Assembly: GCA_965217865.1 (NCBI GenBank)
Contig: CBDCJO010000002.1
Coordinates: forward strand, 4,032,001 to 4,096,000
Reading direction: 5' to 3'
Length of the DNA stretch: 64,000 bases
Source of the DNA: Candidatus Latescibacterota bacterium
GTDB taxonomy: Bacteria; Latescibacterota; UBA2968; SICM01
A program made the position numbers and the translations under genes. Shown here one piece after another: positions 1,933 to 10,297 of this stretch. The notes under the pieces are model-generated. The model had not been told where the DNA came from, did no database searches, and saw only the letters and a program-made list of their open reading frames with translations. Position 1 is the first letter of the stretch. Each line of letters opens with the position of its first letter.

Positions 1933-3260
1933 GGATCTTCACGCAGAAGTATGGATAGATAGAAAAGCTCCACGAATTTTCAGGGCAAAGTAGTCGAAGT
2001 CTCTGAAGCCGAAGGCGATGCGCTTGATGACTTTGATCTTGTTGTTTATGCCCTCAACGATGCTTGTGTGGATGGGGTAGTCGCAGTGTGCCAGGATGCT
2101 TTCCTTGTGATATAGCAGCTTCCTGGTGAAGCGTATCAACGGCTTGATCCCGGAGTCAAGGGCTCTTTGACACCAGGCGTCGAGCCATCTGGCTGCCCAG
2201 GCTTTGCGTTTGTAGATCCAGACTCGTTTCAGGTCCTCTTTGAGGATGTAGACGGTGTTCAAACGTTGATTGATGGCCAGGAGATCGCGGAGTCGGGCTG
2301 GCTCATCGCGGTCGGTTAGCAAGTTCTTTCTGTTTTTGAGAAGTAGGTATTTGGTTCCTCGGATGATAGCCTTGTTGTCCTTGGAGGCTTTTCGACATTC
2401 ATCGATCCGAACCCGATCGATTACTTTCTGGGCATAGATCTGGAGCAGGTGGAAGGGATCATAGACCGTGGCAGCGTCAGGACAATGCTTGCGCTTCGCC
2501 TTGGCATAGCCGCGCCAAGCGTCCATCGCGATGGCCTGGATCCGGCTGCACTTTCCAGGGCCCAGCGCCTCGAAGAATGGATCCAGTGCTTCGGCGTTGC
2601 GGCCTTTGCCAACATATAGGACTTGTCCTGTTCCTGCATCAGCTACTGTAGTACCATAATCCTGGCCGCGTTTGACGGCGAACTCGTCAATGGCCAGCAG
2701 CGAGGCCTCAGTATCGCCTACGGCAGGCAAGTCGTCCTGTAAGGCCTTCTTGTCGATCTGTTTAACCACACTCCAGTGCAACCTGAACTGCTGGGCAATC
2801 GCTTTGATCGACCGGATTTCTCTGCAGGCCAAAGCTACAGCTCCAGCCAAGCGTTTGGTGTAACCAACACGAGGTTCCACCCAATCCAGATACTCAGTCC
2901 GAACGCCGCATGTCGCACAGCGTATCCGGCACTGGGAGAACTCGATCCAGACACGACCGAAGGGTCCGAAACTCAGATCCTTGACCGAACGTAGGCGGGA
3001 ATCATAGCAAGATCGATACGTCCGACCACAGGTGCAGCGGTACTCCTTTTCCCGTCGCGAGACCTCTATCCAAAGTGTCGAGAGATCCTCGCGGAACCTC
3101 AGCTTGATCACATAAAATCCTTGCAGACCAACCAGCCTGTCGATATAATCCTGTATAGCCATCGGGATTCTCCTTTCGTCAGGTTAGGTGCGTTACCCAA
3201 CTGTAGGAGAAAACCGGTGGCTTTTCTACATTATTGATCCACTCTTAAGCGTGAAGAACC
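1933..3260 (-). mobile_element. ISL3-family insertion sequence, copy 1 (1328 bp)
   Basis: Imperfect IRs GG(T/A)TCTTCACGC..AAG..TGGAT; CAAAATGG on both flanks (1925-1932, 3261-3268). Confidence 0.92.
1939..3162 (-). CDS. ISL3-family transposase
   Basis: N-terminal Cys zinc-finger, AIDEFA, AMDAW, YDPFH, VEGINNKIKVIKRIAFGFRD. Confidence 0.95.
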   Translation of the reverse strand: MAIQDYIDRLVGLQGFYVIKLRFREDLSTLWIEVSRREKEYRCTCGRTYRSCYDSRLRSVKDLSFGPFGRVWIEFSQCRIRCATCGVRTEYLDWVEPRVGYTKRLAGAVALACREIRSIKAIAQQFRLHWSVVKQIDKKALQDDLPAVGDTEASLLAIDEFAVKRGQDYGTTVADAGTGQVLYVGKGRNAEALDPFFEALGPGKCSRIQAIAMDAWRGYAKAKRKHCPDAATVYDPFHLLQIYAQKVIDRVRIDECRKASKDNKAIIRGTKYLLLKNRKNLLTDRDEPARLRDLLAINQRLNTVYILKEDLKRVWIYKRKAWAARWLDAWCQRALDSGIKPLIRFTRKLLYHKESILAHCDYPIHTSIVEGINNKIKVIKRIAFGFRDFDYFALKIRGAFLSIHTSA

Positions 3261-5918: not shown

Positions 5919-7246
5919 GGTTCTTCACGCTTAAGAGTGGATCAATAATGTAGAAAAGCCACCGGTTTTCTCCTACAGTTGGGTAACGCACCTAACCTGA
6001 CGAAAGGAGAATCCCGATGGCTATACAGGATTATATCGACAGGCTGGTTGGTCTGCAAGGATTTTATGTGATCAAGCTGAGGTTCCGCGAGGATCTCTCG
6101 ACACTTTGGATAGAGGTCTCGCGACGGGAAAAGGAGTACCGCTGCACCTGTGGTCGGACGTATCGATCTTGCTATGATTCCCGCCTACGTTCGGTCAAGG
6201 ATCTGAGTTTCGGACCCTTCGGTCGTGTCTGGATCGAGTTCTCCCAGTGCCGGATACGCTGTGCGACATGCGGCGTTCGGACTGAGTATCTGGATTGGGT
6301 GGAACCTCGTGTTGGTTACACCAAACGCTTGGCTGGAGCTGTAGCTTTGGCCTGCAGAGAAATCCGGTCGATCAAAGCGATTGCCCAGCAGTTCAGGTTG
6401 CACTGGAGTGTGGTTAAACAGATCGACAAGAAGGCCTTACAGGACGACTTGCCTGCCGTAGGCGATACTGAGGCCTCGCTGCTGGCCATTGACGAGTTCG
6501 CCGTCAAACGCGGCCAGGATTATGGTACTACAGTAGCTGATGCAGGAACAGGACAAGTCCTATATGTTGGCAAAGGCCGCAACGCCGAAGCACTGGATCC
6601 ATTCTTCGAGGCGCTGGGCCCTGGAAAGTGCAGCCGGATCCAGGCCATCGCGATGGACGCTTGGCGCGGCTATGCCAAGGCGAAGCGCAAGCATTGTCCT
6701 GACGCTGCCACGGTCTATGATCCCTTCCACCTGCTCCAGATCTATGCCCAGAAAGTAATCGATCGGGTTCGGATCGATGAATGTCGAAAAGCCTCCAAGG
6801 ACAACAAGGCTATCATCCGAGGAACCAAATACCTACTTCTCAAAAACAGAAAGAACTTGCTAACCGACCGCGATGAGCCAGCCCGACTCCGCGATCTCCT
6901 GGCCATCAATCAACGTTTGAACACCGTCTACATCCTCAAAGAGGACCTGAAACGAGTCTGGATCTACAAACGCAAAGCCTGGGCAGCCAGATGGCTCGAC
7001 GCCTGGTGTCAAAGAGCCCTTGACTCCGGGATCAAGCCGTTGATACGCTTCACCAGGAAGCTGCTATATCACAAGGAAAGCATCCTGGCACACTGCGACT
7101 ACCCCATCCACACAAGCATCGTTGAGGGCATAAACAACAAGATCAAAGTCATCAAGCGCATCGCCTTCGGCTTCAGAGACTTCGACTACTTTGCCCTGAA
7201 AATTCGTGGAGCTTTTCTATCTATCCATACTTCTGCGTGAAGATCC
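5919..7246 (+). mobile_element. ISL3-family insertion sequence, copy 2 (inverted relative to copy 1)
   Basis: Same length, IRs and transposase as copy 1; flanks CAATTTTG / CCATTTTC share only the ATTTT core next to the ends. Confidence 0.92.
6017..7240 (+). CDS. ISL3-family transposase
   Basis: Protein identical to 1939..3162. Confidence 0.95.
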   Translation: MAIQDYIDRLVGLQGFYVIKLRFREDLSTLWIEVSRREKEYRCTCGRTYRSCYDSRLRSVKDLSFGPFGRVWIEFSQCRIRCATCGVRTEYLDWVEPRVGYTKRLAGAVALACREIRSIKAIAQQFRLHWSVVKQIDKKALQDDLPAVGDTEASLLAIDEFAVKRGQDYGTTVADAGTGQVLYVGKGRNAEALDPFFEALGPGKCSRIQAIAMDAWRGYAKAKRKHCPDAATVYDPFHLLQIYAQKVIDRVRIDECRKASKDNKAIIRGTKYLLLKNRKNLLTDRDEPARLRDLLAINQRLNTVYILKEDLKRVWIYKRKAWAARWLDAWCQRALDSGIKPLIRFTRKLLYHKESILAHCDYPIHTSIVEGINNKIKVIKRIAFGFRDFDYFALKIRGAFLSIHTSA

Positions 7247-7363
7247 CCATTTTCCGATATTAAATATTCAATGAAGTCGGGTTCGGATGTCGGAGGCCAG
7301 GGAAGGAAATTGCCAGGTGCAAAATGGAAAATGCAAAATTAAACGCAATTAGACCTCATGGGC

Positions 7364-7392
7364 TTGACTTTCCAAGCCGGAATGAGTAAATT
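7364..7392 (+). promoter_or_regulatory. Sigma70-like promoter whose -35 lies in the left IR; probably leaderless transcript
   Basis: TTGACT-17-TAAATT; ATG at 7399 near the expected +1, no SD. Confidence 0.5.
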
Positions 7393-7398
7393 CACGCC

Positions 7399-8622
7399 AT
7401 GCCCAACTTTAAGAACCGCACGATGTGGACGGGTGACAACCTGGACATCATGCGTGGTATGAACTCCGGGAGCGTAGACCTGATCTACCTCGATCCTCCT
7501 TTCAATAGCAAGCGGAACTATGCCGCACCCGTGGGGAGCGAGGCGGCCGGGGCTGCATTCAAAGACACGTGGACGCTTTCGGACGTGGACGAAGCATGGC
7601 ACGGAGAGATCGCAGACAAGCAACCGGCCCTATATTCGATCATTGACGCATCAGGCTTGGCGCACGGGAAAGGCATGAAATCGTATTTGATCATGATAGC
7701 CGTAAGGCTGCTCGAAATGAAGCGGTTGCTCAAGACAACCGGAAGTCTGTACCTGCATTGCGACCCCACGGCCAGCCATTACCTGAAGCTGCTCATGGAT
7801 GCTGTGTTCGGAAAATCCAATTTCAGGAACGAAATTGTATGGTGCTATACAGGTGCGAGCAATACACCTCGATGGTTTCCACGCAAGCATGACACGGTTT
7901 TGTGGTACTGCCGCAAAACGACTGCGTCGTTTTACCGTGATGCCGTGCGCGTACCGTATCATCCTGAAACGCTCGCCCGGAAAGGACGCGCAGATGACAG
8001 CTGGTTCACGAACGAAAAGCGGAGCAGGGCCGACGTTGAAACCATGCTTGGGGTTGGCAAGGTGCCGGAAGACTGGTGGGTCGGTATTCCAAAGCTGACC
8101 AATCAACGCGAACGTGTCGGCTATCCTACCCAGAAACCCCTTGCCCTCTTGGAGCGAATCGTTAAAGCGTCGAGCCAGGAGGGAGATATTGTCCTGGACC
8201 CATTCGCGGGCTGCGCCACCGCCTGCGTTGCTGCCGAAAAGCTGCACCGCCAATGGGTGGGTATAGACATATCGGAGAAAGCGGTTGATCTTGTTCAGGT
8301 CCGCATCCGGCAACTCGACCTGTTCAGCGACTTCACGCCCGTCAAGCGAACCGACGTTCCAAAACGAACGGACGTAGGCAAGCTTCCCAACTACCGTACA
8401 CATAGGCATGTCCTGTTCGGCAAGCAGGAAGGAATGTGCAAAGGGTGCCGTTCAACATTTCACTTCAGAAACTTCGTGGTGGATCATGTCACGCCCAAGA
8501 GCAAAGGAGGAACCGATCATCTGGACAACCTGCAACTGCTATGCGGAGCCTGCAACAGCGTCAAGGGATCCAACACACAGGAACATCTGATCTCCAAATT
8601 GAAGGCGGATGGTATCCTGTAA
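7399..8622 (+). CDS. Amino-DNA methyltransferase (beta class) fused to C-terminal HNH endonuclease
   Basis: IYLDPPF, GYPTQKP, LDPFAGCAT; C-terminal CKGC..DHVTPKSKGG..NLQLLCGACNSVKG. Confidence 0.9.
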   Translation: MPNFKNRTMWTGDNLDIMRGMNSGSVDLIYLDPPFNSKRNYAAPVGSEAAGAAFKDTWTLSDVDEAWHGEIADKQPALYSIIDASGLAHGKGMKSYLIMIAVRLLEMKRLLKTTGSLYLHCDPTASHYLKLLMDAVFGKSNFRNEIVWCYTGASNTPRWFPRKHDTVLWYCRKTTASFYRDAVRVPYHPETLARKGRADDSWFTNEKRSRADVETMLGVGKVPEDWWVGIPKLTNQRERVGYPTQKPLALLERIVKASSQEGDIVLDPFAGCATACVAAEKLHRQWVGIDISEKAVDLVQVRIRQLDLFSDFTPVKRTDVPKRTDVGKLPNYRTHRHVLFGKQEGMCKGCRSTFHFRNFVVDHVTPKSKGGTDHLDNLQLLCGACNSVKGSNTQEHLISKLKADGIL

Positions 8623-8640
8623 ATCGAAAGGAGAATTCAA

Positions 8641-8748
8641 ATGGCAGACGAAAAAAACAACGACCAAAAACAGACACCGCCACCACCGCCACCACCGCCA
8701 CCACCGCCTCCTCCGCCCCAGCCAGAACGAGTCACTAAAGGCGGTTAG
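8641..8748 (+). CDS. 35-aa micropeptide MADEKNNDQKQT-(P)14-QPERVTKGG
   Basis: SD AAAGGAG 6 nt before ATG; below the ORF-track cutoff; mixed Pro codons. Confidence 0.6.
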   Translation: MADEKNNDQKQTPPPPPPPPPPPPPPQPERVTKGG

Positions 8749-9275
8749 CGAAGTGTGTTGTGTAAGAGAAGGCACGCGAGATTTAATAAAACAGAGAGTG
8801 CTATGCATCCATAGCACCACGTGGCAAGACATGCCTTCTGGCCAACGATGGAGCGGTTGTGTTTTATTTGTTTCTTCAGACCATTGAACCTTTCACGTTC
8901 AAACAGTTCATCAGCTTTTTGATCGGCTTCCGGTTTGCCCTCAAAATACTTTTTTAGTTCTTGATACCAGGGATCCCATTTCTCTATGCTTTCGGTCTCA
9001 TGGCAACGTGGCCAGAGAATAATCAGTGCCAGAATTCCGCCCACACTAAGGGCTATTGCAGAGAGAGTTTGGGCAGATGATACAACTACGTGTGCAGTGT
9101 CAAGGTTAAGAAAATAAGCGGTTTGTGTGGACAGAAACGTGATCAGAATCAACGAAACGCTTGCTTTGACGTCAAGTGTGTCCGACAAGCTGAAGAACAG
9201 TTTGTCTTTCTCTTCAATTCTATTAATAAGTTGAGTCATTGGCTTCATTTCTGCGACCTCCATATTAAGAAACAC
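8745..9275 (-). CDS. Three-TM membrane protein resembling Pycsar effector PycTM/DUF5706
   Basis: LDVKASVSLI, TM-WPR, QIKHNRSIVGQK-TM pattern; similarity judged by eye. Confidence 0.55.
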   Translation of the reverse strand: MFLNMEVAEMKPMTQLINRIEEKDKLFFSLSDTLDVKASVSLILITFLSTQTAYFLNLDTAHVVVSSAQTLSAIALSVGGILALIILWPRCHETESIEKWDPWYQELKKYFEGKPEADQKADELFERERFNGLKKQIKHNRSIVGQKACLATWCYGCIALSVLLNLACLLLHNTLR

Positions 9276-9276
9276 T

Positions 9277-10161
9277 CTACGCGAAGCACCCCTTCATGAA
9301 CGTGTCAAACGTCCGCTTGTTCTTCCGGTTGTTGTATTTGTAACACGCCTCAGCCACATAGAACGGCGTGTAACGCTTCGTGTAGTGATGATGGGAACCG
9401 TACCAGGCACGCTTGAGCAGAGACCACACGCCTTCAATCGTATTCGTGTGTATGTCACCGTCCGCATAATGCCTGGCATGGTGGATCACAGCGTGACTCA
9501 TGATTTGCCTTACGGTATTATAAGCACTGTATTCATCCGTGACAAGCATCGACCCTTCGGGGTCTATCGCCTGCTTGACGAAGGCCAGAACTCCCTTGCC
9601 AGATAGATCGTCCGCCACACGGGCAACCACCTTCCCGCCACGCTCCACTGCCCCTATAACCGGAGTCTTGCGGGTTCCGCGCCCCCTGGGAGCGTTGCCG
9701 CCGCCTCCTGACCGCTTGTTACGCTTCCGTGGCTTGCCTCCTACGTAGGTCTCATCTGCCTCGATGATTCCTCGCAAGAGCACTCTACCATTCCTTGTCG
9801 CCATCTCGGCACGAATCCGCTGTTGCATATACCATGCCGACCGCTGGGTAAGGTTCAGGTCCCGGGCAAGCTGACAACTGGACAGGCTCTTCTTGGCGTT
9901 CACGATCAAGGCGATTGCCATAAACCACTTCTGAAGCGGCAGGTACGTTTTCTGAAATATTGTCCCTGAAAGAACATTGAAGCTGGACCCGCAGGCATGA
10001 CAGTTCCAGCGTCCAACGCGGTTACGGTCCTTCTTGCGGGCAACGTCACCAACGACACCGCAGAGCGGACAAAACGGATCATCTCCGAATCTCACCCGCT
10101 CAAGGTGATCAATGCATGATTCCTGAGTAGGGAACCTTTCAATCGCCGTCAACAAGTTCAT
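9277..10161 (-). CDS. IS1595-family transposase
   Basis: CPLCG..CHAC zinc ribbon, EADETYVGG, TDE, HTNTIEGVWS. Confidence 0.95.
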   Translation of the reverse strand: MNLLTAIERFPTQESCIDHLERVRFGDDPFCPLCGVVGDVARKKDRNRVGRWNCHACGSSFNVLSGTIFQKTYLPLQKWFMAIALIVNAKKSLSSCQLARDLNLTQRSAWYMQQRIRAEMATRNGRVLLRGIIEADETYVGGKPRKRNKRSGGGGNAPRGRGTRKTPVIGAVERGGKVVARVADDLSGKGVLAFVKQAIDPEGSMLVTDEYSAYNTVRQIMSHAVIHHARHYADGDIHTNTIEGVWSLLKRAWYGSHHHYTKRYTPFYVAEACYKYNNRKNKRTFDTFMKGCFA

Positions 10162-10297
10162 TTTCCTTCCTCCTCTTTTTTGGTTAAGTTGGTTGTTTTC
10201 ACTACACTTAATATAACCGAAAAGAGGGTAAAAGTCAAGCCCTTAGATTCTAATTGCGAAATTAAAAGGTAGACCGGACTCAGGTCTGGGTTCGGGA

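Follow-up and report, generated by a model that had tools for sequence, protein, structure and literature searches.

The window analysed here is a 64,000-nucleotide stretch of a Candidatus Latescibacterota genome (contig CBDCJO010000002.1, positions 4,032,001 to 4,096,000). It carries, at 7344–10258, an insertion element of 2,915 bp with four genes. Its terminal inverted repeats of 28 nt are 82% complementary; the transposase-distal one lies at 7344–7371 (plus strand) and the transposase-proximal one at 10231–10258 (minus strand), and both ends are flanked by the 8-bp target-site duplication AAATTAAA (7336–7343 and 10259–10266). The genes form two convergent units. On the plus strand, a DNA methyltransferase fused to an HNH nuclease (MTase-HNH) is followed by a short proline-rich peptide gene, whereas the minus strand carries the transposase and a membrane protein gene. 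The transposase (9277–10161, 294 aa) is an IS1595-family DDE enzyme with a zinc ribbon and the residues D136, D209 and E243; it matches PF12762 (E 1e-36), PF12760 and NF033547 (181.6 bits, for a cut-off of 75). A sigma-70-like site with its −35 box inside the repeat faces inward from either end; the first (7364–7392, plus strand) would drive MTase-HNH and the peptide, and the second (10210–10238, minus strand) the transposase and the membrane gene. Both are consensus matches only, 6 such sites having been found versus 1.8 expected.

A second copy of the element, identical over 2,915 bp, is present in the same genome (G000; 6.43 Mb, 2 contigs) at G000:C2:5530183-5533097, where it is flanked by an 8-bp duplication of its own, TTTCTTTT, which differs from AAATTAAA. 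Therefore, all four genes transpose together and the element moves as one unit, as had been proposed, from the repeats and the duplication, in an earlier annotation made from the letters alone (hereafter the sequence-only reading). A contig joint spanning the whole element (7338>10255) was present in three of six runs (X1, X2 and X4). An empty site rebuilt from the flanks accounts for the right edge of this joint with one mismatch, the letters in between being marked unknown, and the joint fits an empty site. Another joint, seen in runs X5 and X6 with a short side of only 24 letters, skips 558 nt within the transposase (window 9354–9913); it may stem from a deleted relative or from another organism. 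Like the transporter IS (tIS) of the IS1595 family, a known kind defined in TnCentral (bioRxiv 10.1101/2021.05.26.445724, in the portion of the text available), the element combines a single DDE transposase with a zinc ribbon, terminal inverted repeats, a short flanking duplication and passenger genes that move with it. It is thus an intact IS1595 transporter element. It differs from other tIS in its cargo, a methylase-HNH fusion and a membrane protein/peptide pair, which are two separately mobile modules.

The first module, MTase-HNH (7399–8622, plus strand), encodes a 407-aa protein in which a beta-class N6/N4 DNA methyltransferase is joined to a C-terminal Cys4-HNH nuclease, with intact DPPF, DPFxG and HNH motifs. 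Profile searches recovered both parts (PF01555, E 8e-42; PF01844, E 9e-13), in line with the fusion recognized by the sequence-only reading. A family set was made from the best 120 homologues, and 111 of the 121 proteins, query included, could be parsed. Among these, DPP[FY] was conserved in 110, DPFxG in 111 and the Cys4-HNH pattern in 109. Residues 149–240 (7843–8118, plus strand) form a hypervariable, shuffled target-recognition segment, with a median pairwise identity of 0.32, versus 0.76 for the N-part, 0.69 for the C-part and 0.66 for the HNH. This segment is uncoupled from the backbone (Spearman −0.14 to −0.17, versus 0.50–0.65 among backbone parts), and 160 of the 228 pairs with backbone identity of at least 85% share less than 40% in it. 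MTase-HNH likely works as a one-protein restriction-modification enzyme, in which one recognition domain would steer methylation as well as cutting, and its swap would alter both together.

Relatives with a solved structure belong to the beta-class methylases, M.RsrI and M.MboII among them; the structure model of MTase-HNH itself was poor (pLDDT 65). Like the Type IIC/IIG enzymes (MmeI family), MTase-HNH has methylase and nuclease on a single chain that carries one exchangeable specificity region. Those enzymes, however, mostly combine an N-terminal PD-(D/E)XK nuclease with a gamma-class methylase, one specificity module steering both activities (PMC4081073, in the part accessible), whereas MTase-HNH has a beta-class methylase, DPPF before DPFxG and a C-terminal HNH, and does not have the Type IIG layout. 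A role of the IscB/OMEGA type, in which a nuclease with RuvC and HNH parts uses a guide RNA, was also rejected: NF040563 scored 41.6 bits against a cut-off of 175, over the HNH part only, and there was no Rfam match. No description of the MTase-HNH architecture was found in the open-licence literature searched (main texts, without supplements). The best 80 genome loci for this protein came from Poribacteria, Chloroflexota, Acidobacteriota, Proteobacteria and others, and 17 of them had an IS1595 transposase match nearby. Repeats with an 8-bp duplication enclosed both genes at 9 of 16 loci tested (L053 left out), one of the 9 being devoid of the HNH. Short basic ORFs of 52–74 aa, different from the proline-rich peptide, were seen at one end of other IS1595 elements (L026, L033, L035, L042, L071 and L075), and two or three HNH-bearing methylase-type ORFs per locus at L059 and L073 (in tandem at both) and at L043.

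The second module consists of the membrane gene and the peptide gene. The membrane gene (8745–9248, minus strand; ATG behind a GGAGG site) encodes a 167-aa protein with three helices, and has a GC content of 43.5% versus 55% for MTase-HNH and the transposase. Its relatives number 135 among 50%-identity representatives. The structure model is confident (pLDDT 94.5) and all-helical, with three hydrophobic stretches, and the positive-inside rule would place the conserved polar residues (D15, D23, D26, K28, R81, N131 and K138) on the cytoplasmic side. The PADLOC PycTM profile matched the protein at E 3e-5 and, within its family, 44 of 62 members. The three best Atlas clusters carry PycTM names (0.94–0.95), and PF18967 is on 19–37% of their members. 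Alignment by hhalign with a PycTM adjoining a cyclase-like gene gave a probability of 83 over 146 columns, in which the D-x-K and N...K positions of the two families align. The relationship to PycTM suggested by the sequence-only reading is therefore supported, though as a distant one. Defence effectors, PycTM and CBASS 2TM, are the sole family resemblance of this protein. No catalytic or transporter family matched it, Pfam PF18967 did not match the window protein, Foldseek of the model returned no match at E 0.001 in PDB or viral structures, and the family had no match in annotated phages, in plasmids or in a second viral scan.

No cyclase accompanies it, again in agreement with the earlier reading. 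The three PF00211 matches of the genome (class III cyclase domains) lie outside the window, at 2.41, 2.83 and 4.28 Mb of C2. Queries with two cyclase-like proteins linked to PycTM had no match near the element. Similarly, no cyclase was found near membrane-family loci, either among 34 neighbouring ORFs or by tblastn over the loci. Peptide and cyclase were mutually exclusive in the loci seen. The adjacent PycC cyclase is absent, and the pair is not Pycsar.

The peptide gene (8641–8748, plus strand) starts 18 nt behind MTase-HNH, has an AAAGGAG ribosome site and encodes 35 residues, rich in proline and ending in V-T-K-G-G. The two genes meet tail-to-tail, their stop codons overlapping at 8745–8748. 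The occurrence of such peptides was examined at 20 intact loci. Of 22 starting loci, five were dropped: L109 and L117, where the contig ends within the gene; L113, a duplicate of L112; and L126 and L127, whose membrane gene is cut short at 93 aa and which showed no peptide. The window, L134 and L136 were added, and L135 was left uncounted. An ORF was scored if it lay on the opposite strand, had 25–75 aa with at least 15% proline, and ended between −75 and +40 nt from the membrane stop. Such an ORF was present at 20 of 20 loci, versus 85 of 1,326 in the background (ORFs of more than 120 aa with a Met start, not all of which are genes) and none of 8 canonical PycTM genes (above cut-off, two of them adjoining cyclase-like genes). 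A first pass with ATG starts only had given 19 of 21, missing L107 (GTG start) and a distant match. Lys-Gly followed by 0–2 residues formed the C-terminus at 17 of the 20 loci, compared with 1 of 1,326 in the background.

The 3′ overlap of the convergent genes is 0–21 nt. That the peptide is a by-product of the membrane gene end or of G-rich DNA was rejected on the proline codons, which make up 33% in frame versus 6% in each of the other frames, with use of all four codons, and on the C-terminal motif, which is kept where no membrane codons overlap it (window, L125). The peptide is therefore a conserved coding partner of the membrane family. No usable Atlas match was obtained for it. In distant relatives (E about 1e-7) and their homologues, a low-complexity or proline-rich peptide is found on the same strand (L131, L132 and L173–L175), where it overlaps the membrane gene or forms an in-frame tail, with an apparent ribosome site of its own; these cases were read by eye, with no control. 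They suggest that a peptide product, rather than an antisense RNA, is what is kept. The same-strand peptides or tails end in a hydrophobic-hydrophobic-Lys/Arg-Glu-like motif (L131, L132, L173, L174 and L175). Apparently the membrane protein/peptide pair is undescribed: the same search of open-licence main texts gave no description of it.

The genome holds 12 transposase copies at 89–100% identity, with at least five different cargo sets. The sibling at C2:651746-654387, which has a second copy, carries an MTase-HNH with a different recognition segment, and some siblings have MTase-HNH without any membrane/peptide pair. A type I HsdR-N protein is also among the cargo, and there are three copies of a reduced, 1.8-kb form as well as a 10-kb nested form. 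The latter, at G000:C2:4583550-4593523 (L006), has a nested IS1595 organization. Among its several methylase genes is one of 541 aa that appears Mrr-like in its C-terminal part by eye. The sibling at C2:3670489-3674882 has the gene order of the window element (MTase-HNH, peptide, membrane gene, transposase), and the start of its peptide resembles that of the window peptide; its membrane gene is a different one and is broken by another IS. This sibling element had two copies, one of which is split, with its halves 225 kb apart, at the IS within the membrane gene. Flanks seem to have been exchanged between copies (G000:C2:3354500-3359123, 3579000-3584753 and 3670489-3674882), which points to recombination between the nested IS copies.

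The membrane family of this sibling has no detectable homology to that of the window (hhalign probability 3.4) and no PycTM match, so that a single superfamily for both was dropped; only the layout is common to them. At 4 of 9 loci of the sibling family, a short convergent ORF reaches at least 15% proline; over a wider search range and with a limit of 10% proline, 7 of 9 loci have one. A second three-helix membrane family with convergent, proline-containing short ORFs was seen at L161–L170, including four copies in genome G100, and had no match in Pfam or PADLOC. A contig joint at 8633>9284, present in three to four runs, was first taken for a pair-less element. This was rejected, as the loose end at 9284 is the sequence of this sibling element, and the joint is read as a different cassette in the same slot.

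Outside this genome the two modules occur apart. The membrane family was absent from all 80 of the related MTase-HNH loci, and the pair was found without a methylase. The proposal of the sequence-only reading that nuclease/methylase and effector form a single module was thus not upheld, and the cargo is two independent modules. At L136, in another family of the same class, the pair rides a different IS1595 (transposase 31% identical) with its own duplication and no methylase; its membrane gene is 80% identical to that of the window and the peptide is alike. L110:217-1075 is an 859-bp cassette free of transposase, with IS1595-type repeats, only the pair inside, and flanks matching at 7 of 8 positions. 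IS1595 transposase parts adjoin the pair at L108, L109, L111, L117 and L135. Further copies of the pair lie within a different repeat-bounded element (L114), next to a DDE_Tnp_1 gene (L125) and, at a phage locus (L128), between an HNH gene and that for the small terminase. Roughly half of the 20 loci have no IS1595 part. The pair is rare, being present in 4 of 168 genomes of its own phylum (two of them distant matches) and in 2 of 401 of a second phylum.

Defence or addiction is our best guess for the function of the cargo, and the pair is most likely a toxin-antitoxin or guard-type defence in which the peptide would restrain a membrane toxin. Our preferred account, which we hold tentatively and at somewhat short of even odds, is that the element joins a one-protein restriction-modification enzyme to a peptide that would hold a PycTM-related toxin shut in place of a cyclic nucleotide. 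Two convergent transcripts would start at the repeats, one for methylase and peptide, the other for transposase and membrane gene. The peptide, probably unstructured and short-lived, would dock by its basic Lys-Gly end on the conserved cytoplasmic face formed by the polar residues listed above, several of them acidic, and keep the pore shut. Once the peptide is gone, because a phage has shut down host expression or the element itself has been lost, the pore would open and the cell arrest. The pair shares with Type II toxin-antitoxin systems a conserved two-gene arrangement in which one partner is a small, unstructured protein. A wider proposal, possible in our view and put forward with less assurance, is that such pairs are widespread, unannotated two-gene immunity cassettes, in which a PycTM-type pore would be gated by an encoded proline-rich peptide with its Lys-Gly end in the site of the Pycsar cyclic nucleotide, spread by insertion sequences and phages.

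Several observations weigh against this account. The homology to PycTM appears distant, as just 1 of 31 members of the membrane family tested passed the Pfam PF18967 cut-off. The 20 loci represent 15 clusters at 70% identity and only 8 at 50%, and most of them came from one motif scan. The membrane gene is frameshifted at L135 beside an intact peptide, and that of the sibling is interrupted by an IS; such broken copies fit a dispensable toxin, but also a neutral passenger. In the distant family the peptide sometimes continues in frame from the last membrane helix, as at L131 and L175; fused in this way, it would sit outside the cell. For the first module, 63 of the 80 MTase-HNH loci had no IS1595 transposase match with the single query used, and cutting by the HNH stands as a prediction. 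The direction of control, repressor or activator, is a proposal, as are the toxicity, expression and phage protection ascribed to the pair. Complex prediction with two membrane chains and the peptide gave scores of 0.29 and 0.26, against a mark of 0.32, and speaks neither for nor against docking.

The peptide might instead be an activating ligand or sensor which, when cleaved, modified or accumulating in infection, opens the PycTM-like pore as cCMP or cUMP do. This would agree with the ligand activation of canonical PycTM (PMC11224242, as far as the accessible text goes), with the D-x-K and N...K positions aligned to cyclase-linked PycTM, and with the mutual exclusion of peptide and cyclase. 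However, no protease, ligase or sensor gene accompanies the pair, and the transposase-free cassette L110 holds the two genes alone; we consider activation unlikely. A function outside defence and addiction is doubtful, if slightly easier to entertain; the membrane protein might then export, anchor or modify the peptide, or the pair might be of some other use to the mobile element. The strict one-to-one pairing, the position of the membrane gene directly behind IS1595 transposases (window, L136, L108, L109, L111, L117 and L168) and the possible in-frame tail of the distant family all speak for it, whereas the absence of any catalytic or transporter match, the many loci free of IS1595 parts and the resemblance to defence effectors alone speak against it.

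It is distinctly improbable that the membrane protein is an orphan Pycsar-type effector, sensing a nucleotide made elsewhere and tuned by an antisense transcript in the style of type I toxin-antitoxin pairs. The convergent layout with its short 3′ overlap would suit such an arrangement, and the three class III cyclase domains of the genome could provide a nucleotide, but the peptide is under codon-level selection, its C-terminal motif is conserved outside the overlap, the distant family has same-strand peptides with ribosome sites of their own, and no Rfam match was obtained at E 0.1. That all three cargo genes make up one integrated anti-phage module is very improbable: the sibling at C2:3670489-3674882 does repeat the gene order, with a different membrane gene, but the 80 MTase-HNH loci of other genomes are devoid of the membrane family, the pair exists without the methylase, and other siblings carry MTase-HNH without the pair.

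Compared with known systems, a peptide-restrained membrane toxin has several partial counterparts. Type I toxin-antitoxin pairs show convergent 3′ overlap and a membrane-acting product. They differ from the present pair, whose membrane protein has 167 aa and three helices and whose opposite strand encodes a conserved peptide; the selection acting on these codons and the absence of an Rfam match led us to reject a type I system with a non-coding antisense antitoxin. In Pycsar (PycC cyclase and PycTM), PycTM disrupts the membrane once activated by a cyclic pyrimidine (PMC11224242 and, for the system, PMC13069673, in the parts accessible). The membrane protein of the element equals PycTM in size and is distantly homologous to it, with D-x-K and N...K aligned; in contrast to Pycsar, the element has no cyclase and has a convergent proline-rich peptide gene, which none of the 8 canonical PycTM genes has. 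The proposed logic resembles that of Panoptes guards, in which nucleotide loss frees a repressed membrane effector (PMC13577387, in the portion available): a constitutive partner holds the effector inactive, and its loss leads to arrest. This is an analogy only, since in Panoptes the repressor is a polymerase-made cyclic nucleotide and the effector CARF-TM or 2TM-beta, whereas the repressor in the element would be a peptide.

The surroundings of the element were also inspected. Two ISL3 transposase ORFs with an identical 407-aa translation lie in inverted orientation at 1939–3162 (minus strand) and 6017–7240 (plus strand), the IS1595 element being located about 100 bp beyond the second. Between them are a gene that we take, by its motif, to be sulfatase-like, and a 310-aa ORF. 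The ISL3 pair and the enclosed genes possibly constitute a composite transposon.

In this element, IS1595 acts as a vehicle in which the position between methylase and transposase is an exchangeable slot. Where a PycTM-like gene lacks a cyclase, it is usually classed as an orphan; at least one family of such genes has a fixed partner, a peptide of 28–59 residues on the opposite strand that gene callers overlook. The pair is a two-gene system of less than 900 bp and, if its proposed mode of action is true, a nucleotide-gated defence fold would have been re-used with a peptide switch.

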